From Candidatus Hydrogenedentota bacterium (GTDB lineage Bacteria > Hydrogenedentota > Hydrogenedentia > Hydrogenedentales > SLHB01): 64,000 bases of DNA. Each line of letters begins with the position of its first letter. Position 1 is the stretch's first letter. This document shows positions 9,914-38,010 of the stretch, piece by piece. Below the pieces are notes generated by a model. It saw only the letters and a program-made list of their open reading frames with translations. It ran no database searches and had not been told where the DNA came from. The position numbers and the translations under genes were made by a program. The stretch is taken from positions 8,125 through 72,124 of the forward strand of contig JARKSN010000316.1 of the NCBI GenBank assembly GCA_029974275.1, written 5' to 3'.

Positions 9914-11809
9914 ATGCAAAGACAGACATTAGCTTTACTGGGCGTGCTGTTTCTGGCGGCAGCGCTGTTTCTGGTCAACCTGGGCGGCTACGACCTGTGG
10001 CCGCCGGATGAACCGCGATTCGCGCAGATCGCCCGCGAGATGCTGCAGTCGAGGGACTTCATCGTTCCCCACATCAACAACGAGGTGTACAGCGAGAAGC
10101 CTCCGATGCTCATGTGGGCCATCGCGGCGGTGTCGGCGCCGTTCGGCGACGTGAGCGAATGGACCGCGCGTTTCCCCTCCGTGGTGTCGGCGCTGGTCAC
10201 GGTCTTGTTCACGTATCTGTTGGCGCGGCGTCTCTACGGGCCGTGCGTCGCCGTGTGGTCGGGCCTCGTGTTGACGACGATGGCCCTGTTCTGGTGGGAA
10301 GCGCGATCGGTTCGCACAGACATGATGCTCACTGCGTGCCTCACCGTCTGCCTCTATGCGTTCTGGCGATGGCATCGCGAACGCAGCGCTGGCATGTTGG
10401 TATTGTTCTATACCGCGCTCGCCGTTGCGCTCTTGGTGAAAGGCCCGCCCGCGCTGGTGTTCACGACCCTGCTCGTCTTCGCGTTCTATTGGGGACAAAA
10501 AGACGAGCGCATTCAGTTCCACTACTTCATCGGTCTGCTCGTCGCCGCCGTGCCGGTCGTGCTCTGGCTTGGCCTGAAACACTTAAGCGCGCCCGCCGTC
10601 GCGGAAGGCGATGTGGCCGTGAGCGACAACCTCTTCCGCCAGACCATCGGGCGCTTCTTCCTGGGTGTGAGCCACGCGCAGTGGCCGTGGTACTACTTCA
10701 TCAACCTGCCCATCAACTGGTTGCCGTGGTCGTTGCTGTTGCCGTGGACCCTGCCGTGGGTGTGGAAGAAGCGCCACGAAGACGACCGCATGCGGCTGCT
10801 GCTCGCGTGGATGGTGCCCGCGTTCATCTTCTTCACCATTTGCATCGGCAAACGCCCGGTCTACCTGATCCCCATCTATCCCGTGGCTGCGATCCTGTTC
10901 GCGCGCAGCGCCCAGGAACTTCTGGAAAGGCCGCATGAGCGACTGCGCAGAATTTTGGCCCTGGGATGGCTGCAGATTCCAAACGTTATAGTTCTGGCAC
11001 TGTTTTCGGTAATGATAAGTCTGGAATACGGAGATCGTTTCCGGTTCCTCAGCCCTATCGCACAATTCGGCGAGCACTTGCCACGCACATATGTAACGTT
11101 CTGCGCTGTGCTCATGTTGGCAACTGTGCTCCTAACGATTTGGACCATTGTCGAGTCAGCGCGCAACATTCGATCTTTATTTGCGGGAAGTTTCTTTTTG
11201 TTCGCAGTAGCTAGCGCGTTGTGGGGGCTTCCGCTCCTAGACGAACACAAAGGCGCGAAGGATTTCTGTGCGCCGCTGCGGCAGCTTTCGGAGAAGCAAG
11301 TCGATTACCGTCTCTACTCGGTCGGGGTATCGCGCGAGGAGTACATTTTTTATAGCAAGCACGTACACGTGCCGGTGCTGATGGACTTGTTGCCCATTCC
11401 GCAGCAGCCCAGCATGAAGCCCATGGACATGGTCAAGCTACAGCGCACCTTGCGCAAACGTATTGCCAAGGCGGTTGAAAGCCACCCCATCGACGCTGGC
11501 GCCGCGCTCACCGACCAGGACCTTTTGGCGTTGCGCGCGGTGGTGCACGAAGCGGTGGTGGACGCGAAGATAGACCCTGTGCTGACGTCCGAGTTCGAGA
11601 AGGCGCTTGCCGACGCGCTGAACGCGTTTGCCGACACGATGCTCGAACCCAGCCCCGCGTTTTTCTTTGTGCAAGAAGAAGACTGGCGCTGGATACTGCC
11701 GTTGTGTCCGCGTTTGCACGCGTTGACGGTGCTCAAGTATGCGCGGGTCGGCAGCCGCAAGATGCTTATTGTCGCCAACGACGCAGGCGACCGGGCGATG
11801 AATCCGTGA
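9914..11809 (+). CDS. ArnT/PMT-like glycosyltransferase (GT39/GT83 family) with a C-terminal soluble extension
   Basis: N-terminal LGGYDLWPPDEPRFAQIAREMLQSRDFIVPHINNEVYSEKPPMLMW is the typical ArnT/PMT loop-1 signature, and there are at least 10 predicted transmembrane helices. Confidence 0.8.
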   Translation: MQRQTLALLGVLFLAAALFLVNLGGYDLWPPDEPRFAQIAREMLQSRDFIVPHINNEVYSEKPPMLMWAIAAVSAPFGDVSEWTARFPSVVSALVTVLFTYLLARRLYGPCVAVWSGLVLTTMALFWWEARSVRTDMMLTACLTVCLYAFWRWHRERSAGMLVLFYTALAVALLVKGPPALVFTTLLVFAFYWGQKDERIQFHYFIGLLVAAVPVVLWLGLKHLSAPAVAEGDVAVSDNLFRQTIGRFFLGVSHAQWPWYYFINLPINWLPWSLLLPWTLPWVWKKRHEDDRMRLLLAWMVPAFIFFTICIGKRPVYLIPIYPVAAILFARSAQELLERPHERLRRILALGWLQIPNVIVLALFSVMISLEYGDRFRFLSPIAQFGEHLPRTYVTFCAVLMLATVLLTIWTIVESARNIRSLFAGSFFLFAVASALWGLPLLDEHKGAKDFCAPLRQLSEKQVDYRLYSVGVSREEYIFYSKHVHVPVLMDLLPIPQQPSMKPMDMVKLQRTLRKRIAKAVESHPIDAGAALTDQDLLALRAVVHEAVVDAKIDPVLTSEFEKALADALNAFADTMLEPSPAFFFVQEEDWRWILPLCPRLHALTVLKYARVGSRKMLIVANDAGDRAMNP

Positions 11810-17136: not shown

Positions 17137-17467
17137 AAAAAATGATCCCGTCGGCATTGGCGACATCATCGCGGGTCTCAAGAAGACGACCCCGCTGGGC
17201 AAGCAACTCGAACTGGCGCAAATCTGGGAGCGCTGGACGGAAATCGCCGGGCCGAAATTGGCGCCGCACGGGCATCCGTATACGGTCAAAAAAGGGACGC
17301 TGCATATCCATGCCAACAGCCCGGTCTGGGTGCATCGGTACGGCTACGTAAAATGGGATCTTCTCAAAAAGGTGAACCTGATGGCGGGCCACGAATTGAT
17401 CTCCGATATCTTTATTGGGCTGGCCTCGGAAGACCCCAATCCTGCACAAGATAAAGTGGACAAATGA
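17081..17467 (+). CDS. DUF721 (DciA-like) protein in the conserved position between recF and gyrB
   Basis: ELAQIWERWTEIAGPKLAPHGHPYTVKKGTLHIHANSPVWVHRYGYVKWDLLKKVN matches the DUF721 pattern. The start is uncertain; it may overlap the recF 3' end. Confidence 0.7.
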   Translation: MACRARISSFRVDALKRNRKNDPVGIGDIIAGLKKTTPLGKQLELAQIWERWTEIAGPKLAPHGHPYTVKKGTLHIHANSPVWVHRYGYVKWDLLKKVNLMAGHELISDIFIGLASEDPNPAQDKVDK

Positions 17468-17509
17468 TTTAGATGCCCCAAAATATTGCGATTCCCTCCA
17501 GGGCCGACG

Positions 17510-17573: not shown

Positions 17574-20006
<2,433 letters not shown>

Positions 20007-20020
20007 GCGGGAGGTGAGCT

Positions 20021-21016
20021 ATGACTAGCCTGCCATTGTTTGGTTCGGTCCCTGACATTCGTGATCGCTACAAGAAGAACGCAGATGTTGTATTTTTCTG
20101 CGGCGACACGAACCAGTTTCTTCGCGATCTTCCGGACAAGGAAGTCAAGCTCATCATTACGTCGCCGCCGTATAATCTGGGCAAGGCATATGAGGACAAG
20201 GTTGCGCTGCACGACTACTTGGAGTCTCAGCGAGAGACCATCGCGCAATTGCTGCGGGTACTGCGGCAAGACGGGAGTCTGTGTTGGCAGGTCGGAAATT
20301 ACGTGGACAAAGGAGAGGTCTTCCCTCTCGATATTCTGTACTACAGCATGTTCAAGGACATGGGCCTTCATTTGCGTAACAGGATTATCTGGCGGTTTGA
20401 GCATGGGCTTCATGCGTCTCTTCGTTTCTCCGGCAGGTACGAGACGATACTCTGGTTCACGAAAACGAGGCACTACACGTTCAACTTGGACTCCGTCCGT
20501 GTGCCGTCGAAGTACCCGGGCAAGCGACATTATAAGGGGCCAAACAAAGGCAAGCCGTCGTGCAATCCGATGGGAAAGAATCCCTCGGATTACTGGGAGG
20601 TTGTCAAGCAGGATTGGGAAGAAGAGGTCTGGAATATTCCGAACGTGAAATGCAACCATCCCGAGAAGACATCTCATCCTTGCCAATTCCCGGTGGAACT
20701 TGTTGAACGTTGCGTGTTGGCGCTGACCGATCCCGGTGATATTGTCCTTGATCCCTATGCGGGCGTCGGGTCGTCGCTCATCGCAGCACTGAAACATAGT
20801 CGGAAAGCATATGGCGCGGAGAAAGAAGCCGACTACGTCGCCGAAGGAGCCGCGCGGATCAAGGCGTTCTATAATGGGACACTGCGTCTGCGGGAATTGG
20901 GGAAACCCGTCTACACACCTTCCGGGCGCGAGAAAGTATCGCGTCCTCCCGAGGAGTGGGGGGAAGGGACACAAGGACGCTTGTTGGAAGAACAGGGTGA
21001 CTACGGATGCGAGTAG
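20021..21016 (+). CDS. Type II DNA methyltransferase, beta class (N4-cytosine or N6-adenine; M.BglII/M.PvuII-like)
   Basis: Motif IV IITSPPYNLGKAYED comes before motif I VLDPYAGVGSSLIAA, which is the beta-class order. A strong RBS (GGAGGTGA) sits 5 nt upstream. Local GC is about 50% against roughly 63% in the flanks. Confidence 0.85.
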   Translation: MTSLPLFGSVPDIRDRYKKNADVVFFCGDTNQFLRDLPDKEVKLIITSPPYNLGKAYEDKVALHDYLESQRETIAQLLRVLRQDGSLCWQVGNYVDKGEVFPLDILYYSMFKDMGLHLRNRIIWRFEHGLHASLRFSGRYETILWFTKTRHYTFNLDSVRVPSKYPGKRHYKGPNKGKPSCNPMGKNPSDYWEVVKQDWEEEVWNIPNVKCNHPEKTSHPCQFPVELVERCVLALTDPGDIVLDPYAGVGSSLIAALKHSRKAYGAEKEADYVAEGAARIKAFYNGTLRLRELGKPVYTPSGREKVSRPPEEWGEGTQGRLLEEQGDYGCE

Positions 21017-21567
21017 ACAAGAAGTTCAGTTTCAACGGCGGCGAGGAGTACGTTTCCACGCATTTCCCGAGTGAGTTGCGGGAAGTCATGCGTGTCATTG
21101 GCGCTGTCGACGCGGCGTTGCACAAGAACAAAGTGTCCAAAGAAAAGACAATGCCTGGACGCGTTCTGTTCAACCCGAGACAACTGAACAAGGCGTTCAA
21201 GACGAGTTTTGAAGAACGCGAATGGTCGACAACACGAGTGAAATGCCAGGACGTTGTTCTTGATAACAACGTGCATGTGCCGTTGCCCAGTGGGGCCTTT
21301 CGCGAGATGGATTTTGTGAAACACCGTTTGGGCGTTGAAGTGCAACTGGGCAAATACGCATTCATGGTATACAACGTCTGTGCCAAGATGACAATCTTTC
21401 ATAATCTCGATGTGATAGATGCGGGAATCGAGATCGTCCCGATGAAATCTTTGGCAGACGAAATGTCAACAGGCGTCTCTTATTTTGAGCAGATTGTCTG
21501 GGACCTCACACATCGTGGCGTCTCGGATATTGATATCCCGGTTCTGGTTTTGGGAATTTCTGATTAG
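21007..21567 (+). CDS. BglII-family type II restriction endonuclease
   Basis: REMDFVKHRLGVEVQLGKYAF aligns to the BglII active site (DFGKRDTLVEVQF) with identical D-x8-E-x-Q spacing. The C-terminal IPVLVLGI resembles BglII VPIRLVGL. A 10-nt overlap with the methyltransferase gene. Confidence 0.75.
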   Translation: MRVDKKFSFNGGEEYVSTHFPSELREVMRVIGAVDAALHKNKVSKEKTMPGRVLFNPRQLNKAFKTSFEEREWSTTRVKCQDVVLDNNVHVPLPSGAFREMDFVKHRLGVEVQLGKYAFMVYNVCAKMTIFHNLDVIDAGIEIVPMKSLADEMSTGVSYFEQIVWDLTHRGVSDIDIPVLVLGISD

Positions 21568-21609
21568 CTGTAAAGTTAGGGCGTTGCGTCAACGAACGTT
21601 GAGAGAGAT

Positions 21610-24165
21610 ATGGAAACACCAAACGAACGTGTAGTGCCGATTGCGATCGAGCAGGAGATGAAGACCTCGTTCATGGACTATTCCATGAGCGTGATTGTGA
21701 GCCGCGCGTTGCCGGACGTGCGCGACGGCTTGAAGCCGGTGCATCGACGCATTCTGTACACGATGCACGAGATGGGGCTGGTGCACAATCGCGGGTTTCG
21801 CAAGTCCGCGGCCATCGTCGGCGACGCGATGGGGAAATACCACCCGCACGGCGACTCGGCTATTTACGACACCCTCGTGCGCCTGGCGCAGCCATGGAAC
21901 ATGCGCTATCCGCTCGTGGACGGTCAGGGCAACTTTGGATCGGTCGACGGCGACAGCCCGGCTGCGATGCGGTACACCGAATCGCGCATGGCGGCGATCA
22001 CGTCGCAGATGCTGGCCGACATCGAAAAACAAACGGTTAACACGCAACCCAATTACGACGGGCGTCTGCAGGAACCCGTCGTGCTGCCGTCGGCCATTCC
22101 CAATCTACTGGTTAACGGCTCGTACGGCATTGCCGTGGGCATGGCGACGAGTTGCCCGCCGCACAATTTGCGCGAAGTCTGTGACGCGGTCGTGCATCTC
22201 ATTGACAATCCCAAGGCGACCGTCGCAGACATGATGCGCTTCGTCAAAGCGCCCGATTTCCCGACCGGCGGCATCATCTACGGGTGCGAAGGCTTGCCCG
22301 AGGCATACCGCACCGGACGCGGGCGCATCACCGTGCGCGCCAAGGTCGCCATTGAACACGACCAGCGCGCCAATCGGGATCGCATCATCGTCAAGGAACT
22401 GCCGTATCAGGTCAACAAGGCGCGCCTGATCGAAAACATCGCGGAGTTGGTCAACGCCAAGACGGTCGAGGGCATCACGGACTTGCGCGACGAGTCCGAC
22501 CGCGATGGGATGCGCGTCGTCATCGAAGTGCGCAAGGGCGATGAGCCTCAGGTCATCCTGAATCAGCTCTACAAACACACGCAGCTGCAAGAAAACGCGA
22601 GCATTTTGATGCTGGCGCTGGTGAACAATCAGCCGCGCGTGTTGTCGCTGCTGGAAATGGTCGGCTACTACGTCAAGCACCGCGCCGAGATCGTCCGCAA
22701 GCGCACCGAGTACGACCTGCGCCAAGCCGAGGCGCGCGCGCATATCGTCGAAGGACTGCTCAAGGCCATCGACCATATCGACGAAGTGATCGAGATCATA
22801 CGTTCGTCGGAAGACGCCGATCAGGCCCGCGTGCGATTGGGCGATCGCTTCGGTTTCACCGAGATTCAGGCCAACGCGATCCTCGCCATGCGCCTGCGCC
22901 GATTGACCGGTCTCGAACGCGAGGAGTTAGAGAAGGAATACGCCGACTTGCTCAAACAGATCGAGCACTTCCAGCGCATTCTGTCGAGCGAACGCACGAT
23001 TTTGGCCGAGGTCCGCCGCGAGATACTCGAAGTTCGGAACAAATACGGCGACGACCGCCGCACGATTATCTTGGGCGAGACCTCGGAATTCGCCATCGAA
23101 GATCTCATCGCCGACGAGAACATGGTCGTGACGGTGTCGAACCAAGGCTACATCAAGCGCGTGCCCGTCAGCACCTACCGCAAACAGCGGCGCGGCGGCA
23201 GGGGCGTTGCCGGCATGGAGACGAAGGAAGAAGACTTTGTGCGCGACCTGTTCATCGCGTCGGCGCACCAATACATGCTCTTCTTCACGAACCTCGGGCG
23301 CGTGTACTGGCGCAGGGTGCATGAATTGCCCAAGGCCAGCCGCACGGCCCGTGGTCGCGCGATCGTGAATGTGCTTGACCTCACGGGAGACGAACGCGTG
23401 ACGGCATGCTTGCCGGTGCGCGACCTCAAGGAAGAGGGCAAGTTCGTTTTCATGGTGACCGCCAACGGCACGATCAAGAAGACCGAACTCACCGCTTTCA
23501 GCAATCCGCGCGCGGCGGGCATTATCGCGATCGATCTCGACAAGGGCGACGATCTCATCGACGTGCAGATCACCTCGGGCAACGACAACATCCTGATCGC
23601 CACGTACAACGGTTTGGCGATTCGTTTTCCCGAAAAAGACGTCCGCTCCATGGGGCGCGGCGCGCGCGGCGTGATTGGCATTCGCCTGGAAAAAGGCGAT
23701 CGCGTGATCGGCGTTTCCATCGCCGAGGACGACATGACGGTTCTCAGTGTAACAGAAAGGGGCTTCGGCAAACGGACAAAGGTCGGCGAATACCGGCTGC
23801 AACACCGAGGCGGACAAGGTATCATCAACATCAAGACCAGCGACCGCAACGGCAACGTCGTGGGCATGCTCACCGTCGACGACGAAGACGAGATTGTCGT
23901 CGTCAGCACGGACGGCATCGTGATCCGCACGCCCGTCAAGGACATCCGCACGATAGGCCGCAACACGCAAGGCGTCAAGATCATGTCCCCGACCGAAGGC
24001 GCGCAGGTCAGCGCCGTCGCCCGCGCATTGGCCGAAAGCAAGGAAGAACACCTGACGGAAACCGCCGCGACCTTGGGCGAAGCGCAGCAAATTTCGCCCG
24101 GTTTGTCGACGCAAGACGATGAGAACGGTCTTTTTTCCGAAACGGACGAAGACGAAAACGCGTGA
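21610..24165 (+). CDS. gyrA: DNA gyrase subunit A
   Basis: [19 protein letters not shown]...AAMRYTE (active-site Tyr region) and C-terminal beta-pinwheel repeats. Confidence 0.97.
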
Positions 24166-24255: not shown

Positions 24256-24331
24256 GCGCTCGTAGCTCAGGGGATAGAGCACTAGCCTCCGGAGCTAGGT
24301 GTCGCAGGTTCGAATCCTGCCGAGCGCGCCA
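24256..24331 (+). tRNA. tRNA-Arg (anticodon CCG)
   Basis: A manual cloverleaf fold. The acceptor stem is GCGCTCG/CGAGCGC, the D arm GCTC-AGGGGATA-GAGC, and the anticodon stem CTAGC/GCTAG with loop CTCCGGA. The T arm is GCAGG-TTCGAAT-CCTGC, with discriminator G and an encoded CCA. It closely resembles E. coli tRNA-Arg(CCG). Confidence 0.9.
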
Positions 24332-30289: not shown

Positions 30290-33200
30290 CTACGGAGAGG
30301 AGACGCGACGGGGACGCTTGCGATCCGAGACAGCCTTGAACAATCCTTCGGAACGCGTGCAGACCCATGTGCACGAAAATGCCGCATCTCCCAAAATGTC
30401 CGCCACGTCCCTCAATGGCTTCCGGCCAAGACGCCACGCATCGTTGCTGACCGCATACATGGAATCCCCCTTTCCTCGGAGAAGTCCGTCCGCTTCCACC
30501 CGAAGAATCCCGCCGTCCGGAGCGGGCGTCTGAAACGACCACGGTTGTTTGCCGAAGCAGAGATCGATGACGGCATGGCCGACTTCACATCGAAACGAGG
30601 TTGCCTCCATCGCCGAGGTTCTCGCCCAGATCGCGGGCCGGCCATCGACATCGTCAAAAACGCGTACTCGCTCCACGCCCCGGATCCTGTTTTTCTCGTC
30701 GCCGATCACGAGCCGCGCATCCCGCAACGCCTGTTTACCATCCTCGTGCCACGGCAACAGGAGGATGCCGCCCAAAGAACCCACGGCTACGTATTCCAAA
30801 GCAGGAAGCATGGCTGCCGAAGTCAACACATCAAACGCCATCGCGCGACAATTTCCGATGTCGATCAGCGCCGCATAATCCGCTGGGGATGCCGTGAACG
30901 GCGCGGACGCGAGATCGCTCCAGGCATACCGAGGCTCCGACGACCATGCCAAGGCCGGAGCTCGCAACACGACCGTATCTCCAACGCGAAAGGCGTTCCC
31001 CGTGGTTTGGGCATCGATCTCTTCCCAAGCCAGGGGGCCGTCTTTCCACGAACTCCGATGAAACCGCCACGAAACCGTTTCGCCGGTCCCCTCCCTCTGA
31101 GCAGTGAAAAAACTTCCGAGCTCCGCTTCCCGGATGCGGTCGATGCGCCGAGGGCAGGGTTTGATGTCGCGAAGAACGAGACGATTCTCCTCGATTGCAT
31201 TCAAACACAGGAAGGAAGAACCGCCATTTTCGGGGTTTTGACTGTGGGTCGCGAGAAGCCACAGTTTCTCCTTTCCCGGAAAGGATTCCAGCGCGCATCC
31301 TGCGTCGGCAGCATCGAACACGAAGCGACCATCCGCCAGCAGGCGATCGTCGGAGATATCCGGAATTCGAGAACGGAGCAGAGGGGCATTCTTCGAAAGC
31401 AGGTCGCGCGGAATCCAGCTTTGGGTTAGTTCGAGGCGGCGTTTTCCCAACATGCCGTCGTCCTGAAACGCAACCATCAGATGCGCCACGCTGCGCAACG
31501 ACGGAGACGCGTCGATGCGTTCCAATCGCCACGGCCCTTCCATGCAAGAGACATGATACTGAGGGAATTCGGCGTCGCCGCCCACAACCACTCCCGTGCG
31601 CTTCCCATTTGCGCGGGCGACATCGCACCGTGTTTGCCCGCGCAACACGGTCAGCGTCATGGGATATTGGCCTGCCTGAGCAAGATCAACCCGCGCCAGC
31701 CCTGCCTGCGTCACCAGGACTCCGGTCCTGTTGTCGTCGAGCAATCCGATGGCATGCGTTATGTCCCACGCAAACCGATCCTCATGCCACCAATCCGGGA
31801 TCGGAAGCGGTTGCGCGCCGGTTTCCTCTGCTTCCACGCACGGCGTGAGAGACATGTCCGTTTTCGAGATGGGACGCCACACGATGTTTCCGACCTGTCC
31901 CTCGACTTGCGGCGTTTCCAGTTTTTCGCTCTGCCACGAAGCATCCGCAGCGGCGGAAGTCTGAAATGTCCATAGCCGATGCTTTTCGCGCGCCGTCAGA
32001 CGCAGCGCCGCCCCCCCGATTAAGCTCGGAACGCAATCCGAAGGCATGTCCGAAGGCGGCGCGAAGCACGCCATGATCGTTGCAGGGGATCTCGGATCGC
32101 GTTTCACGACGCATCGGCCAGGAACGAACACGTACAAACCTTCATTGAAGGAAGCGAACGATGCCCCGCGATCGAAAAAGAACCTGCTGCCGTCAAACAC
32201 GGATTTTCCGTCGAAGGCGCGAAACGACACCTTGCCTTCGCGACATGCGATCCGCAATGCGGGGGTGCTTATCTCCGATTCCGGATCGTGGGAGAGGGGC
32301 GTTTCGGATTTGTCCACTCGTTGGAACGGTCTTGCTTGCAGTCTCCAGAATCCATCTTCCGTTTCCAACGTAATAGGCCCATCCGAAACGTCGCGGCGCA
32401 GCCATGTAACGAGGTCATCTCGGAATTTCCAATTTCCAGCCGTTGTCTGCCGCCAGGAACGCGTCCGGTTCGCTTCATCAAGACGGACGATCCGCAGTTC
32501 CGTTTCCATGCCGGGACGTCGGGTCAAGCGCCACTGCCAGCCGCCGTTCTCCACGACGCTGGTTTGCGCGAGGGCATCCGGACCGGTCAGCAGGGTCAGT
32601 TGGCCATCTTGCCACAAGGCAACGAACCGGCTATTCATTTCTATGGCAACGCGCGCTGGACCTTCCAGACGAACCAGCGATCCGTTGCGGAATCGCTCAT
32701 CAACAACCTGTAACCGGAACGAGTCGGCATCGCGAACCGTCAGCCCCAGATCGGTTATCAACACAAGAGAACCGTCCGAGAGGATTTCCATATCCTTCGT
32801 GCACAAGAACGAAAACGTATCCCCCGACGAAGCCCAGACGGGCCTTTCGGCGCGCGACGCATCGCTCCATGCAATATCGAGTCCATTTTCGGGACCCGCC
32901 CGGAAATCCAGTTGTTCTCCTGCGACATCGACTCTGGCCGCCGTCTTCGTCGAAAGCGTTTCCTCAAACCGCAACGTCCCTTCGGACGCTTCCTCCACGA
33001 GGCGCGTTGTCCGGTCCGCAAACGTAAGCTGGATTCTGTCGTAGGAAAACCATTGCGCCGACACCAGGTCCTTGCCAAGCACGCGTTCTCGCCGGGTTTC
33101 CTCCAGCTCCGTCGAGTTTTTCCCCGGCATCAAGACCGCCAACTCACCTCGTTGAACCGTATATACATTGCCCGATGGCCCCAGCGCGGCGCCGTCGTAG

Positions 33201-36200
33201 ACATCTTCCTCGAACCCTCCAGGCTTGGCGTGAAGGGAGCGCCATGCGCCATGCGCGTTTCGCCAGCAGTGCGTTACGCCCTCCTCGCGAGAGACCTTGA
33301 AAACCTCCGTCTCGAGCAAGAGCCCGTCGCCCGGACGGACCATCGAAACGCCCCCCTTTTCCAGCATTTCGGCCAGCATGGCCCCAGAGACAGGCAATCG
33401 CGAGACAACCGCCCCGGAATCCGCCTGCACCGAGACAATGCCGGTTTGAGATTCGCGCTCGATGACGCCATAGGTCTGGTCTTTGGCGCGAAACCATCCA
33501 TAAAACGTGTATCCGGGAATGGGGGAAAGGAGACGTCGCAACCTGCCCTCAGCCGGATCGTACTGGGCCACGCTTCCCTGAATGTCTATGAAATAAACCT
33601 TGCCGTTGGAGCATTGCGCATATACGGTTTCTCGCGGATCGAATCCTGCCTCATCGAGCGCGCCGCCGCGCGCGTATTCGACGCAGGGAGCTGCAATGTC
33701 GCGCCATTCCATCATCGACAAGCGCCCGTCGGCGACGAACGCCATTCGGACCACGCCCCGATCATCCACCCGAATGCCGCCCTGGCGCACGTTCTCGGGG
33801 ATGGATGTCACCAAGCGTTGATGAAGGTCTTTTCCGACGAAAAGGACATCCCGATCGTCTGCAATGACCATTCCCGAGGAACTCGAAGCGCAGTGCTGCG
33901 GCGTCTGCTTCAGTTCGAGCGGCATTTCGCGCCAAGTGCCGCATGCGTGATCATAAACGCCCAGCGATGGATCGGGACCTACGAACACGACGCTGGAATC
34001 GTCTCGTTGCCAAGCGAAGATGGCTTTTTCCACGAGACGCCGCATGCCGCGGGCAGACCCAAAGCTATCCGCCTTCCATTGTGCGGAGGTTTTCCCTGAA
34101 ATCGGCGTCCAACGGACCAGAGAACCCTCGGCGTTGAGCGCCCAAACCCGCTGACCAGGAGCCTTTGAACCGGCCAGTTGCACCGCTGCCTTGCGCCCTC
34201 CAGGAATCTCGCGCCATGCGTTGTCGTATTGGTGGAACAACCGCCCGTCTTGCAGCCGGGCGAACACGATACCGGCGGCAGAGCATAAATCTGTCACCGG
34301 CGAGGGGGAAGAGCCGGATACGATTCCAAGCTGCGCATATGTCGCCGTATCGTTGTGGTAGGCGATCACGTGGCCGCCAGGGCCCGATGCAAGCATCGCG
34401 TTTTCGCCTGACGGCGCGATGGCGGTCGCACGACTCGGTTCGAAAGGAAAACCGCCCTTCCCAAATACGCCAGTGGAAATTCGGTCCGACACAAGACGCA
34501 GACAGCCGTCCTTGTATAGATAGACAAGGTCTTCGCCGGTCAAGCGAATCTGTTTCACCGTTTCCGGGCTGTCAGGGGAAGCGATCCAGCCGCGATCTTC
34601 GCCCATGTCGCCCGTATTCGAGGCATATTGGATGCACCGATCGCCCTTAAGAAAGGCCACCCGCCACCACTCCGACTTGCTTTCTCCGTCGCCCCGCACG
34701 TAAAGGCACGCATCCCCCAGAAACGAGGAAGAGGAGGCGGCGTCGGCGCCTAGGGTCGGCGCATGCCCTGTGCAAAAACGCCTAGGAAACCCGGTTTTTG
34801 GATAATCGTATCGGTAAATCTCGCCATTTTCCCCTAACCCCAAGAACACGCCATGGCACGAGACGACATGTTTGGCAGGACACTGGTTAAACGGGTCCAA
34901 CGCTCGCCAGTGGCTTTGCCGTTTTGGGTCGTATGCATAGCAATACGCCGCGCCGTTGCTATCCACCGCCAAGACCCCGTCGGGAAGGGCTTCCAATGCC
35001 CTGAATCCGCTTGCCCGCCGCCGCTCGTCAATCGTTCTATTTCCCTCCTGTCCGTGCCACAACGCCATGGATGCATCCTGATACCCGTGCGTATGGGCGT
35101 CATACAAAAACGTCCCGCGGTTCGTCGCGAAAAGCATCCCTTCGTCGACGGTTTTGATGCTCCGGACCTCCAGCGCGCCGACAGCGCCCTCGGGCTTCCA
35201 GCCGTTTCCGGACCTGATCGTCTCGTGTTGGCCTTGCGCCATGGGAGCCCTGGCCAGCCGAACCTCAAGCGCGGATCCGCCGGATGTGGCCTGATAGAGA
35301 CATAGCCCGCCGTCGGGGCTTACCGCCGCCGGCCCTGTGGCGTTCGCGTCGAGAACGACTACGTTTTTCGATAGGTCCTGATTTTCGGAAGCGTTTACAA
35401 GCAGCAATCCGGCATCCGTAGCCACCAGCGCTGCGCTCCCGTGCGACCCAGGAACCGTATCGATGGACGATATATTCGGACATGTCGCCACTCCGATGAG
35501 CCGGCGTTCTGTCGCATCGTAACGGAACAACGCGTTGGCCGTAGCCATCCACGTGGCGCTTTCATCTTGAGCCACCCGCGTGATGCTTGTCACGGCGTCG
35601 AGCTTCGGCGCTGTTTCGGGCTGATGCGTGAAATAGGGCCCCGCCCATCCCGCATCGGGATCGAAGAGCCAAGTGGAACCGTGCGAGTCTTGCGCCCATG
35701 CACTGTGTCCTTCATACGGGGCGTCGAGCTGGACAGCGGCCTGGGTATGCAGTTCGCCGCGATCCAGAAAATTCAGCGTTTGGCGATCTGCGCAACGGAC
35801 GCCTCCTTCCCGAAGCGTAAGCCAGACGCGATCGCGCGTCAGGCCGACATCCGCCATGTCAACCGCCGAGGCCTGGCCTGTTTGCCAGGAACGGTCTCGT
35901 TGCAATGTCCCATCCGAAAGAGGACTAAAGGTGTAGCGCGCCACGCCCGCGCCTCGAAGCGCCACTAGCCATCCCGACGCATCGAACGCATTGCCTTGCA
36001 CCTCCGCCTCCACGCTGCCGACAGAGGCGTGATGGCGCCAGTAGGGATTTTCAGGCGCCCCCAGCCACGAATTCATCGCTATCCCGCTTTTTCCATGCGT
36101 CGCATGGGACCGCTCGATAGCCTGTCCCGACGTCAAGACGAGAAACTCATCCGGTCCTTTGCCATTTGTGACGTCGAGCGTTGGATTTGGGATATGACGC

Positions 36201-36667
36201 TGCCGGACAAGACGGCTTTGCTTGTGGAGGATTGTCAGACCGTCCGATGTTCCCAGCGCCAGCCAATTTCCGTTTGACGCCATGGACGTGAATACCGTGC
36301 GCGTGTAATCCCAGAAGGGGCGTACGTCGCGCACATGGTCAAGGGTGTTCCAGGGAAACATCCACGGCAGCCTGGGGTTCACGGCAAACACCGACATCGC
36401 CGCACCCGAAAACAGGCATGCAGTCAGGAGCCCCCCCAGCGCCCAGACCGATATCGCTCGACGAGCGTAATCGTAGGGAAAGCTCGATATCTTGTAAGCG
36501 TTTGGTCGCAGTGAGGTTTCGGATGCTCCATGCTGCCGCGCGAAGTCTTCCGCCAAAGCATCGACGAAGCGAATCCGCCCCAGAATTCCTTCCTGCCACT
36601 CGCGCGGAACTCGCCGCCGCCACGCGCCCAGCAAACGGCGCAGTGTATTCAGGGCCAGCGCTTGCAT
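30290..36667 (-). CDS. Giant single-pass membrane protein with Reg_prop-like beta-propeller repeats (2125 aa from ATG 36667; 2241 aa if the TTG at 37015 is used)
   Basis: An Arg-rich cytoplasmic N-terminus, then one TM helix (ISVWALGGLLTACLFSGAAMSVFAV), then about 1900 aa of beta-rich repeats (NGNWLALGTSDGLTILH, TWMATANALFRYD, GMLFATNRGTFLYD). No catalytic motifs are evident. The ATG at 36667 overlaps the CHAT-gene stop (TGATG). Confidence 0.7.
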   Translation of the reverse strand: MQALALNTLRRLLGAWRRRVPREWQEGILGRIRFVDALAEDFARQHGASETSLRPNAYKISSFPYDYARRAISVWALGGLLTACLFSGAAMSVFAVNPRLPWMFPWNTLDHVRDVRPFWDYTRTVFTSMASNGNWLALGTSDGLTILHKQSRLVRQRHIPNPTLDVTNGKGPDEFLVLTSGQAIERSHATHGKSGIAMNSWLGAPENPYWRHHASVGSVEAEVQGNAFDASGWLVALRGAGVARYTFSPLSDGTLQRDRSWQTGQASAVDMADVGLTRDRVWLTLREGGVRCADRQTLNFLDRGELHTQAAVQLDAPYEGHSAWAQDSHGSTWLFDPDAGWAGPYFTHQPETAPKLDAVTSITRVAQDESATWMATANALFRYDATERRLIGVATCPNISSIDTVPGSHGSAALVATDAGLLLVNASENQDLSKNVVVLDANATGPAAVSPDGGLCLYQATSGGSALEVRLARAPMAQGQHETIRSGNGWKPEGAVGALEVRSIKTVDEGMLFATNRGTFLYDAHTHGYQDASMALWHGQEGNRTIDERRRASGFRALEALPDGVLAVDSNGAAYCYAYDPKRQSHWRALDPFNQCPAKHVVSCHGVFLGLGENGEIYRYDYPKTGFPRRFCTGHAPTLGADAASSSSFLGDACLYVRGDGESKSEWWRVAFLKGDRCIQYASNTGDMGEDRGWIASPDSPETVKQIRLTGEDLVYLYKDGCLRLVSDRISTGVFGKGGFPFEPSRATAIAPSGENAMLASGPGGHVIAYHNDTATYAQLGIVSGSSPSPVTDLCSAAGIVFARLQDGRLFHQYDNAWREIPGGRKAAVQLAGSKAPGQRVWALNAEGSLVRWTPISGKTSAQWKADSFGSARGMRRLVEKAIFAWQRDDSSVVFVGPDPSLGVYDHACGTWREMPLELKQTPQHCASSSSGMVIADDRDVLFVGKDLHQRLVTSIPENVRQGGIRVDDRGVVRMAFVADGRLSMMEWRDIAAPCVEYARGGALDEAGFDPRETVYAQCSNGKVYFIDIQGSVAQYDPAEGRLRRLLSPIPGYTFYGWFRAKDQTYGVIERESQTGIVSVQADSGAVVSRLPVSGAMLAEMLEKGGVSMVRPGDGLLLETEVFKVSREEGVTHCWRNAHGAWRSLHAKPGGFEEDVYDGAALGPSGNVYTVQRGELAVLMPGKNSTELEETRRERVLGKDLVSAQWFSYDRIQLTFADRTTRLVEEASEGTLRFEETLSTKTAARVDVAGEQLDFRAGPENGLDIAWSDASRAERPVWASSGDTFSFLCTKDMEILSDGSLVLITDLGLTVRDADSFRLQVVDERFRNGSLVRLEGPARVAIEMNSRFVALWQDGQLTLLTGPDALAQTSVVENGGWQWRLTRRPGMETELRIVRLDEANRTRSWRQTTAGNWKFRDDLVTWLRRDVSDGPITLETEDGFWRLQARPFQRVDKSETPLSHDPESEISTPALRIACREGKVSFRAFDGKSVFDGSRFFFDRGASFASFNEGLYVFVPGRCVVKRDPRSPATIMACFAPPSDMPSDCVPSLIGGAALRLTAREKHRLWTFQTSAAADASWQSEKLETPQVEGQVGNIVWRPISKTDMSLTPCVEAEETGAQPLPIPDWWHEDRFAWDITHAIGLLDDNRTGVLVTQAGLARVDLAQAGQYPMTLTVLRGQTRCDVARANGKRTGVVVGGDAEFPQYHVSCMEGPWRLERIDASPSLRSVAHLMVAFQDDGMLGKRRLELTQSWIPRDLLSKNAPLLRSRIPDISDDRLLADGRFVFDAADAGCALESFPGKEKLWLLATHSQNPENGGSSFLCLNAIEENRLVLRDIKPCPRRIDRIREAELGSFFTAQREGTGETVSWRFHRSSWKDGPLAWEEIDAQTTGNAFRVGDTVVLRAPALAWSSEPRYAWSDLASAPFTASPADYAALIDIGNCRAMAFDVLTSAAMLPALEYVAVGSLGGILLLPWHEDGKQALRDARLVIGDEKNRIRGVERVRVFDDVDGRPAIWARTSAMEATSFRCEVGHAVIDLCFGKQPWSFQTPAPDGGILRVEADGLLRGKGDSMYAVSNDAWRLGRKPLRDVADILGDAAFSCTWVCTRSEGLFKAVSDRKRPRRVSSP

Positions 36668-38010
36668 CACATCGTTCGTCTCATGCGACGGAAGTGTCGG
36701 CGGAATGGAGAAATCCGCATCCTCGGCGAGGTCTTCCAAAAAACATCTCCAGACATCCCAGCGGACCTCAGTCGAGAAATCCTCTGTAAGCGCCAGCCAC
36801 ATGGTCGCGCACGAACTTCCCAGCCGCGCCGCCAGTTCCGTCGGTTGCAGGGCGCGCACCAGATGAAACTGGTTGTGTATCGCGCGAACCGCCATTGTTT
36901 CAGGCTGGTTCTCGTGGTGCAGTAAAAGGTGCAGAAAACGTGCGTACGACTCACCGTTTCTGATGGATTCAGGGCCCACCGGGTAAAGAACTCCGCGGCG
37001 AGTTTGACGACGCAATGGATAGCGAGCGGCGGATCCTGGGAATCAAGCGCCGGCGTCTGGGCCTGATGCATCCCCAGCCGGATGTCGATGCTGGCGCCGA
37101 CGAAAAAACGAACCCCGGCGTCGAGGAAGGCATGCGGATATGAGAGCCCCTGCTCTTCGCGGCCTGATGGGTCACGTCCCGCGCTGTAGCAACAGCACGC
37201 GTACACCAGTTCCGGGACGATGCGTCTTTGGTTGGGTGCGGTGGATGATGTCTGGTCTGCGCGCAGAAAACGCCGGAGATCGGAAATCGACAGCACGTGT
37301 CCCGGGTGCAACAGCCAACCTCTTCCCTTGTCCGACGGGTCGGACAAATGACCCAAGAAAAAAACGGCGCGATGCTTGCGAAATATCTCGATCAAGAGGT
37401 CGAAGCGCCCCGCATCGTCGCCTTTGAGCCGTTGAAATTCCTCGCCGCTGAAGGTGTCCACAATCAAGTAAGGTTGCAACTGCCTCTGGAGCGATTTGGC
37501 CTGAGACTCGAACAATTCGTTTCCGTCCCCTGTCGCGTAGAGAATGGCAAGAGTTCTTTCGGGCGGCCGGTCGACAGGCGGACACGCCAAGTGGTCTATG
37601 ATCCGGTAGACAGGGCCTAGGGTGTCGAGCCATTTCTCGCCTGCGGGGAGCAGTTCTGGCAGCAGCTCACAGGATTGATAGGTGAGGATCAGCGTCAATG
37701 GAAGAGGCGGCGTGGAGGACTGCATGGCTTGGGTCACCAGATCGAAGCCCTTTTCCCATCCGATAAAACTAAGCAAATCGGCGCCTGCCGCCACAGGATA
37801 CGGTCGTAGCGGATCGTCGAGAGCCTCCTTCATGGATGCGTGCATTCGCCCGATCGCGCCGTGCAGGAGAGAATCCCAACGCTTTCCGGGATCAACGATG
37901 GGGTGCGATAGGGGAGCCGATGTCTTGTCCGCCGCTGAAAAGATAACCAGAAGGGGGGATTGCCCTTCTTCGGGATAATGAAGCGAGAATGTTGCGGATG
38001 CCTCGTTCAT
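36667..38010 (-). CDS. CHAT-domain (caspase-like) protease-family protein, cytoplasmic
   Basis: Catalytic-dyad-like motifs AVFFLGHLSDP (His) and PELVYACCCYSAGRD (Cys), with the spacing typical of the CHAT/caspase fold. No signal peptide. ATGA overlap with the upstream gene. Confidence 0.7.
   Translation of the reverse strand: MNEASATFSLHYPEEGQSPLLVIFSAADKTSAPLSHPIVDPGKRWDSLLHGAIGRMHASMKEALDDPLRPYPVAAGADLLSFIGWEKGFDLVTQAMQSSTPPLPLTLILTYQSCELLPELLPAGEKWLDTLGPVYRIIDHLACPPVDRPPERTLAILYATGDGNELFESQAKSLQRQLQPYLIVDTFSGEEFQRLKGDDAGRFDLLIEIFRKHRAVFFLGHLSDPSDKGRGWLLHPGHVLSISDLRRFLRADQTSSTAPNQRRIVPELVYACCCYSAGRDPSGREEQGLSYPHAFLDAGVRFFVGASIDIRLGMHQAQTPALDSQDPPLAIHCVVKLAAEFFTRWALNPSETVSRTHVFCTFYCTTRTSLKQWRFARYTTSFIWCAPCNRRNWRRGWEVRARPCGWRLQRISRLRSAGMSGDVFWKTSPRMRISPFRRHFRRMRRTM

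Follow-up and report, generated by a model that had tools for sequence, protein, structure and literature searches.

A horizontally acquired BstYI-family restriction-modification cassette in the gyrB-gyrA spacer of a Candidatus Hydrogenedentota bacterium

What separates gyrA from gyrB in a Candidatus Hydrogenedentota bacterium, where did it come from, and how could it be expressed there? The question is raised by a stretch of 64,000 nucleotides (nt) from assembly GCA_029974275.1 (contig JARKSN010000316.1, positions 8,125 to 72,124; hereafter the window, whose coordinates are used unless another locus is named), in which two open reading frames (ORFs) lie between the two gyrase genes. An earlier inspection of the letters (here the sequence-only reading) had described them as a BglII-like type II restriction-modification (RM) cassette. 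Our results indicate, with high confidence, a BstYI-family RM cassette that was horizontally acquired. We are also reasonably confident of the complete reading that we favour, in which an intact, horizontally acquired type IIP cassette of this family, with a methyltransferase gene (M) followed by an endonuclease gene (R), occupies the gyrB-gyrA spacer.

The genes gyrB, M, R, and gyrA are all co-oriented on the + strand, and the cassette separates gyrA from gyrB. The TAG stop of gyrB occupies positions 20004–20006, both in the ORF map and in the raw sequence. It is followed by a 14-nt spacer (20007–20020) carrying a Shine-Dalgarno (SD) sequence, GGAGGTGA, at 20010–20017, which ends 3 nt ahead of the M ATG. 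M (20021–21016) encodes a beta-class N4/N6 amino-DNA-methyltransferase of 331 amino acids (aa), and R (21007–21567) a predicted BstYI-family type IIP restriction endonuclease of 186 aa. The two ORFs overlap by 10 nt (21007–21016, ATGCGAGTAG), and the start of R inside the 3′ end of M suggests translational coupling. A spacer of 42 nt (21568–21609) separates R from gyrA. The last ~13 nt of this spacer (GTTGAGAGAGAT) are similar to the sequence that precedes gyrA in relatives (GTTGAGGAAAACG), and its 3′ end is probably ancestral host spacer. The anatomy proposed earlier (spacers of 14 and 42 nt, ribosome-binding site, 10-nt overlap, SPPY motif, and active site) was correct in every element.

The R protein matched the Pfam family Endonuc-BglII (PF09195) with E 3.3e-22 (79.4 bits against a cutoff of 26; residues 13–184 of 186) and the PADLOC profile REase_II with E 7e-36; an NCBIfam search gave no match. 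In the Protein Data Bank (PDB), BstYI (1sdo) aligned over the whole length, from residue 1 in both proteins, with E 2.2e-34, and BglII reached only E 1.2e-3. The D-X8-E-X-Q active site is intact (DFVKHRLGVEVQL, residues 102–114). Its residues D102 (nt 21310–21312), E111 (nt 21337–21339), and Q113 (nt 21343–21345) align with D119, E128, and Q130 of BstYI; K116 aligns with K133, and T155 with S172. An alignment of 39 homologues showed no variation at D102, E111, Q113, and K116, and had either T (34 sequences) or S (five) at position 155. In BstYI, K133 and S172 read the outer R:Y pair of the site; a text search for BstYI together with Lys133 returned nothing.

The predicted structure of R (AF2; predicted local distance difference test, pLDDT, 88.3; predicted template modelling score, pTM, 0.85) was compared with known structures using Foldseek. 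It superposed on the BstYI-DNA complex (1vrr_A) with a template modelling (TM) score of 0.89 and a root mean square deviation of 2.3 Å; the scores for BglII and BamHI were 0.73 and 0.61. All 15 significant PDB matches were BstYI, BamHI, BglII, or OkrAI, each of which cuts a hexamer with a GATC core. BstYI (Geobacillus stearothermophilus Y406; R^GATCY; PDB 1sdo, 1vrr, 2p0j) shares with R the Pfam family, the D-X8-E-X-Q triad, and the K133 equivalent. It differs in that the present host is an uncultured Hydrogenedentota bacterium and not a thermophilic Firmicute, and in that R is 17 aa shorter in the region of BstYI residues 80–113. BglII (AGATCT) and BamHI and OkrAI (GGATCC) have the fold class and GATC-core family in common with R (Foldseek E 1e-7 to 3e-8), although BglII is much more distant in sequence (E 1e-3). 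The nuclease call of the sequence-only reading is therefore supported by both sequence and structural similarity; its analogy with BglII holds for the family, the closest characterized enzyme being BstYI. R is predicted to cut R^GATCY as a homodimer.

M matched the Pfam family N6_N4_Mtase (PF01555) with E 7.6e-50 (170 bits against a cutoff of 26.7) and PADLOC MTase_II with E 4e-77; all of its NCBIfam matches fell under the cutoff (adenine methyltransferase, 125 against 292). Motif IV, SPPY, is found at residues 48–51 (nt 20162–20173), and motif I, DPYAGVGS, which binds S-adenosylmethionine (AdoMet), at residues 244–251 (nt 20750–20773). The order IV before I is that of the beta class, and this order and the profiles uphold the earlier call of a beta-class SPPY methyltransferase. 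SPPY is a variant of beta-class motif IV that replaces DPPY, and N4-cytosine (m4C) methylation is the activity of M.BamHI, M.BglII, and possibly M.BstYI (PMC2890505), in agreement with what had been said of M.BglII. Because M carries SPPY and the methyltransferases of the GATC-core relatives BamHI and BglII produce m4C, M would be expected to N4-methylate the inner cytosine, giving RGATm4CY and shielding the host DNA.

The target site was approached through site counts, with expected values taken from an order-4 Markov model. The window contains 404 GATC sites (6.3 per kb). RGATCY occurs 29 times against 53.8 expected (observed/expected, O/E, 0.54; Poisson P 1.5e-4), with O/E values of 0.41 for AGATCT, 0.49 for AGATCC/GGATCT, and 0.68 for GGATCC; the under-representation that the sequence-only reading had proposed to look for is thus present in these 64 kb. 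The cassette itself has six GATC sites and no RGATCY. Eight unrelated loci with homologous cassettes had, when pooled, 41 RGATCY sites against 74.6 expected (0.55, P 1.6e-5), and each of the four variants was depleted in carriers (O/E 0.47–0.71); the pooled O/E of 31 cassette-free relatives was 0.89. A GATC core is very probable. The two hexamers suggested earlier, AGATCT and RGATCY, did not fare equally: RGATCY is favoured, because BstYI is the closest enzyme and the depletion covers all four variants, and we regard it as moderately probable as the site of this cassette. Other palindromes were also scarce in the window, CGGCCG (19 against 37.7, O/E 0.50) and GGCGCC (40 against 60.1, O/E 0.67), which hints at further RM pressures in the host genome.

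To place the insertion, we compared the locus with the 31 closest GyrB loci, which come from metagenome-assembled genomes (MAGs) mostly labelled Candidatus Hydrogenedentota, with a few other labels. The flanking host genes are gyrB (17595–20006, 803 aa; Pfam DNA_gyraseB, Toprim, HATPase_c, and DNA_gyraseB_C) and gyrA (21610–24165, 851 aa; DNA_topoisoIV, E 3e-165, and DNA_gyraseA_C). The window GyrB is 65–74% identical to those of the 31 loci, and its GyrA 71–90% identical to those of relatives. In all 31 relatives gyrA directly follows gyrB, the median distance between them being 79 nt, so the adjacency without the insert that had been suggested as a check was found throughout. None of the 31, which are spread over the phylum tree, encodes M or R. 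Upstream of the cassette the window has recF, dciA, and gyrB, an order also present in 14 of the 31 relatives. The window thus has the ancestral gene order, to which the cassette has been added.

The same cassette, without a single difference, was found in three further assemblies, namely a MAG contig (GCA_002068755.1, MWAU01000010.1) and two independent ones from Logan. Both junctions are spanned by the MAG contig and by one of the Logan contigs, the gyrB side is missing from the other, and identity among the contigs is at least 99.5%. With zero cassette differences, no dN/dS value between strains could be obtained. Three peculiarities of the MAG contig (L001:1–6221; L-numbers denote loci of our comparison sets) were observed. 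From 17203 onward it matches the window at 99.5% identity, and it differs upstream (window 17150–17203), where a histidine kinase gene and a pst phosphate-transport operon stand in place of recF; either the strains differ by a rearrangement or the contig is chimeric. It lacks 24 nt (eight codons, in frame) of window 19913–19936, in the conserved C-terminal region of gyrB near DDMFITLMG, which reflects either natural variation or faulty assembly. Its assembly is labelled 'Chloroflexi bacterium ADurb.Bin360' though the genes of the gyrase region are Hydrogenedentota-like, a probable case of mis-binning or mislabelling.

The nearest homologues of the two proteins, 66% identical for R and 73% for M, belong to a clade with 5011 matches for R and more than 8000 for M. 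Its named members are Chloroflexota: Roseiflexus, Chloroflexus aggregans, Caldilinea, Promineofilum, Ardenticatenaceae, and Anaerolineae. Most of the nearest homologues of the cassette (66–73%) carry a Chloroflexi label, and many of the M homologues at 65–73% identity likewise bear names from Chloroflexi; those of C. aggregans DSM 9485 and Roseiflexus castenholzii are 66–67% identical to M. The same M-R order recurs in more distant copies (53–56%) carried by small plasmids of Acinetobacter and Spirosoma; the NCBI name of R on them is 'BglII/BstYI family type II restriction endonuclease'. The donor was probably a lineage of Chloroflexota, or a plasmid circulating among them.

The cassette has a GC content of 52.1%, against a window mean of 59.9% (standard deviation, sd, 1.9%, in 1.6-kb windows). 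It is the lowest-GC 1.6-kb stretch of the 64 kb, within the lowest 0.16% of such windows, and the flanking genes have 57.8% and 60.4%. The dip described in the sequence-only reading is real, but its size (50% against 63%) was exaggerated, the values being 52% against 58–60%. GC at third codon positions (GC3) is 0.645 in M (z −0.7) and 0.594 in R (z −1.4), compared with 0.70 (sd 0.075) in 41 host ORFs. These values lie within the host spread, so much of the dip stems from the first two codon positions and hence from amino acid composition. We considered GC3 as proof of recent transfer and rejected it, as M and R fall inside the host range. The horizontal origin that had been deduced from the dip stands on the phylogenetic distribution; composition by itself is not proof of it.

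No integrase or transposase gene and no tRNA-adjacent att sites were found at the locus, which hence does not qualify as a genomic island. No direct repeats of ~40–100 bp and no terminal inverted repeats bracket the cassette, the repeats near it being of 10–22 nt and at chance level. No controller (C) ORF is present either, since the spacers of 14 and 42 nt are too small and M and R overlap. The ORF map and the repeat search bear out the sequence-only reading on all three absences. The BglII and BamHI systems have a C protein and other gene orders, and the present cassette differs from them in having no C gene. Among seven homologous loci there was no conserved DNA outside the two ORFs. Because of this, and because the ~13 nt ahead of gyrA are host-like, the mobile unit is essentially 'SD-M-R'. 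A tRNA-Arg(CCG) gene lies at 24256–24331, 90 nt past gyrA and not adjacent to the cassette (ARAGORN, Rfam); it was the sole Rfam match in the window.

A promoter scan with an Escherichia coli-type sigma-70 consensus and a terminator scan revealed no promoter-like and no convincing terminator-like site on the + strand between 18820 and 24200. Promoter-like matches in the region were not above those in shuffles, and terminator-like matches were modestly above (16 against 8.9, sd 2.9); a weak terminator-like hairpin lies within the 3′ end of R (21536–21555). The only sigma-70-like match upstream of gyrB, at 17457–17484 on the + strand (9/12 of the consensus), is a weak candidate for the gyrB promoter. 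The cassette would have neither a promoter nor a terminator of its own and would owe its transcription to read-through from the promoter region of gyrB, and gyrA would be transcribed through the cassette. M, which starts 14 nt past the gyrB stop, would be translated with the help of its strong SD, and R at a lower rate through coupling at the 10-nt overlap. This coupling may take the place of a C protein, in that M would be expressed before R and methylation would run ahead of restriction. We consider the dependence on gyrB read-through rather likely, and we infer co-transcription with gyrBA and a stability benefit of the location.

The M-R family was found repeatedly wedged, co-oriented, into host gene arrays, and in most hosts its GC lies well under that of the flanks. 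The copies in Chloroflexota and on plasmids have the same two genes, M and then R, with overlapping stop and start, at 53–73% identity to those of the window and at other insertion sites; they include Chloroflexus aggregans DSM 9485 (CP001337.1, ~2740501–2742056), Roseiflexus, the Acinetobacter plasmid pANC7970.3, and a Spirosoma plasmid. The M/R overlap of the homologous cassettes is 4 nt, ATGA or GTGA, compared with 10 nt in the window. In an Ardenticatenaceae MAG (JACKCE010000008.1, L172:5015–6570) the cassette is located between hypF and hypC of a hydrogenase-maturation operon; the start of M overlaps the hypF stop, 21 nt separate R from hypC, and GC is 39% against 54–57% in the flanks. 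Two Roseiflexus-type loci (L180:6001–7553 and L179:6001–7566) have it between an aminotransferase gene, which overlaps M by 4 nt, and rsmD-coaD, after a gap of 8 nt. R was called at just 86 aa in L179, with M intact, an apparent decay toward an orphan methylase.

In other hosts the cassette lies directly upstream of dnaB, or of rpe (16 nt). It comes last in a tandem RM island in three loci: C. aggregans DSM 9485 (L181:1749–7556; CP001337.1, ~2736249–2742056), with three consecutive M-R pairs, one of them NotI-like; L176:3227–6570, where a pair of a NotI-like R and a D12 M ends 1 nt upstream of the cassette; and L173:2086–6573, with an EcoO109I-like pair in tandem. In an Anaerolineae-type host, the dnaB that follows the cassette has an intein (L084:6677–9289, L085:6677–8674), which in one population carries an extra LAGLIDADG homing-endonuclease domain and in the other does not (L084 vs. 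L085).

Some of our own observations weigh against the reading that we favour, and they concern above all what R recognizes and what M modifies. R is just ~32–40% identical to BstYI, and its residues 80–96, where it is shorter, were modelled with low confidence (pLDDT 65–73), so that its specificity could differ from RGATCY. BstYI, BglII, and BamHI are themselves one fold with different sites and distinct recognition strategies (PMC2731914). Nor is the RGATCY depletion decisive, because several non-carrier loci are depleted as well (O/E 0.24 in L016, 0.45 in L017, and 0 in L008 and L031). On the side of M, the closest solved structure is the N6-adenine enzyme M.RsrI (E 1.5e-29), the m4C enzymes M.PvuII (9e-15) and N4CMT (2e-18) are less similar, and homologues are labelled 'adenine-specific' in the sources. 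Even so, an RM system of another specificity, whether with a GATC core or otherwise (e.g., GGATCC, AGATCT, or a new degenerate site), seems unlikely to us, for R is much nearer to BstYI (E 2e-34 vs. 1e-3; TM 0.89 vs. 0.73 and 0.61), the counterpart of K133 is invariant and that of S172 always S or T, and the four RGATCY variants are similarly depleted in carriers. It could also be proposed that R is inactive or decaying and that M serves mainly as an epigenetic or orphan methylase, as RM systems commonly decay to an orphan M and a Roseiflexus-type population has the truncated R beside an intact M (L179 vs. L180). We find this very improbable: R in the window is full length, with a start aligned to that of BstYI; the catalytic triad and the other residues that are invariant in the family, 58 in total, are all present, and the four assemblies agree on its sequence.

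The remaining alternatives bear on expression, timing, and the assembly itself. An own, unrecognized promoter of the cassette, perhaps with a gyrA promoter in or after R, would make the operon context incidental; our scan was limited to a sigma-70 consensus that may not apply to the host phylum, its matches did not exceed those in shuffles, and in five of nine homologous loci an upstream gap of 105–270 nt leaves room enough for a promoter. Here, however, the 14-nt gap is filled by the SD, and a promoter would have to sit in the gyrB coding sequence. In L172 (hypF), L180 (aminotransferase), and L176, moreover, M lies 1 nt after the preceding gene or overlaps it, and these tight junctions imply that the family often relies on upstream transcription; we judge an own promoter to be an unlikely explanation. 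As to timing, with the horizontal origin not in doubt, the cassette might be an old, vertically inherited resident and not a recent gain. The GC3 of M and R is not outlying, the depletion of RGATCY in the host takes time, and no relative above 74% GyrB identity was found; a metagenome scan for closer relatives with the variable GyrB C-terminus as query gave a best match of 48% identity and was swamped by the universal YKGLGEMN. Old residence is possible but rather doubtful, given that the cassette is missing from all 31 relatives across the phylum tree, has the GC minimum of the window with its nearest homologues in another phylum, and is compositionally foreign in most hosts. That the locus is an assembly or binning chimera might be suspected from the Chloroflexi label of the public MAG with its Hydrogenedentota-like gyrase, and from the divergence of its contig upstream of 17203. 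However, the window and two of the three further assemblies cross both junctions, at 99.5% identity or more, and the third lacks the gyrB side only; since the same junctions were read in independent assemblies, a chimera is ruled out for practical purposes.

The spacer occupied by the RM cassette holds other genes in some relatives. In Candidatus Hydrogenedens sp. RI_113 (WGMK01000015.1, L024:10416–11247) it measures 832 nt and contains a co-oriented toxin-antitoxin pair with overlapping ORFs, MNT (NTP_transf_2, E 7e-10; ~10426–10779) and HEPN (E 2e-14; ~10776–11189); the spacer is empty in the sister lineage L027. The site of the RM cassette has thus received a second kind of addiction module. 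A 583-nt spacer contains a co-oriented GNAT gene (L028:10460–10915; Acetyltransf_1, E 1.5e-15), and two others have genes for 23S_rRNA_IVP four-helix-bundle proteins (L022:10434–10927 and L006:10404–10873; E 2e-36 and 9e-37) that are 44% identical to each other. Both IVP genes are bracketed by inverted short-tandem-repeat arrays, GGGTATC... / ...CCCGAAAC in L022 and GAGTCAG... / ...CTGACTC in L006. The arrays of L022 fold as a long closing stem around the ORF (minimum free energy −171.8 kcal/mol, z −4.3) that resembles rRNA intervening sequences, which points to a small mobile element that RNase III may process within the gyrBA transcript.

Enlarged gyrB-gyrA spacers without a clear ORF were also found (L032, 414 nt; L015, 303 nt, 42% GC; L021, 214 nt, 39% GC). 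The nearest neighbours of each cargo carrier have an empty spacer, so the cargoes are independent gains. Spacers above 200 nt occurred in eight of 31 cases between gyrB and gyrA, three of 15 between dciA and gyrB, and one of 15 between recF and dciA. A unique hot spot in the gyrB-gyrA spacer was considered, and the idea is weakened by the expansion of the two control spacers as well. As far as these sequences tell, the gyrB-gyrA spacer is permissive and has been used repeatedly, which does not make it a proven specific hot spot. Among the control spacers, a dciA-gyrB gap of 1.35 kb without a convincing ORF (L020:6655–8001) and a recF-dciA gap of 2.27 kb with ORFs on the opposite strand (L011:711–2980) were observed. 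Elsewhere in the window, positions 30290–37015 of the minus strand form a very long ORF (2241 aa).

RM complexes have been described as mobile units that insert into operon-like gene clusters, also without linked mobility genes (PMC2993543, PMC2853133). The present locus resembles such Kobayashi-type units, likewise an RM pair without mobility genes in a co-directional array with empty sites in relatives. The insertion mechanism with long target duplication given in the same papers does not apply, as there are no flanking direct repeats here. Our literature search on elements inserted between gyrB and gyrA found no report. The sequence-only reading had called the location unusual; this stands for gyrBA as a target in the literature searched, and insertion into operon clusters being already described makes it less exceptional. 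The module itself is ordinary, a known BstYI-family type II RM system in a noteworthy but precedented kind of location. What the analysis adds, as judged from the loci compared, is the apparently habitual wedging of the family into host arrays and the parallel cargo in the same spacer.

A bolder view of the family is offered tentatively, and we rate it as rather unlikely. The cassettes could be ORF-bounded, promoterless 'operon hitch-hikers' that land at junctions of highly expressed, indispensable operons (gyrB-gyrA, hypF-hypC, aminotransferase-rsmD, and upstream of dnaB) and borrow host transcription and stop-start coupling. If that were true, RM expression would be tied to the supercoiling-responsive expression of gyrase, imprecise loss of the cassette from gyrBA would be lethal twice over, and the HEPN-MNT pair in the same spacer would represent the same strategy with a different addiction module.

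The locus is a clear natural case of an addiction-type module in an essential operon, for which empty and occupied sites can be compared. It is a tractable system for asking how minimal RM units move without recombinases, and whether their embedding in an operon makes them more stable or links defence to DNA topology. The predicted specificity, RGATm4CY, would extend to a large, uncharacterized, mostly Chloroflexota clade that includes cultured strains. The expression of the family appears to lean on host operon signals, and the gyrB-gyrA spacer has been independently colonized by other small selfish or accessory cassettes.

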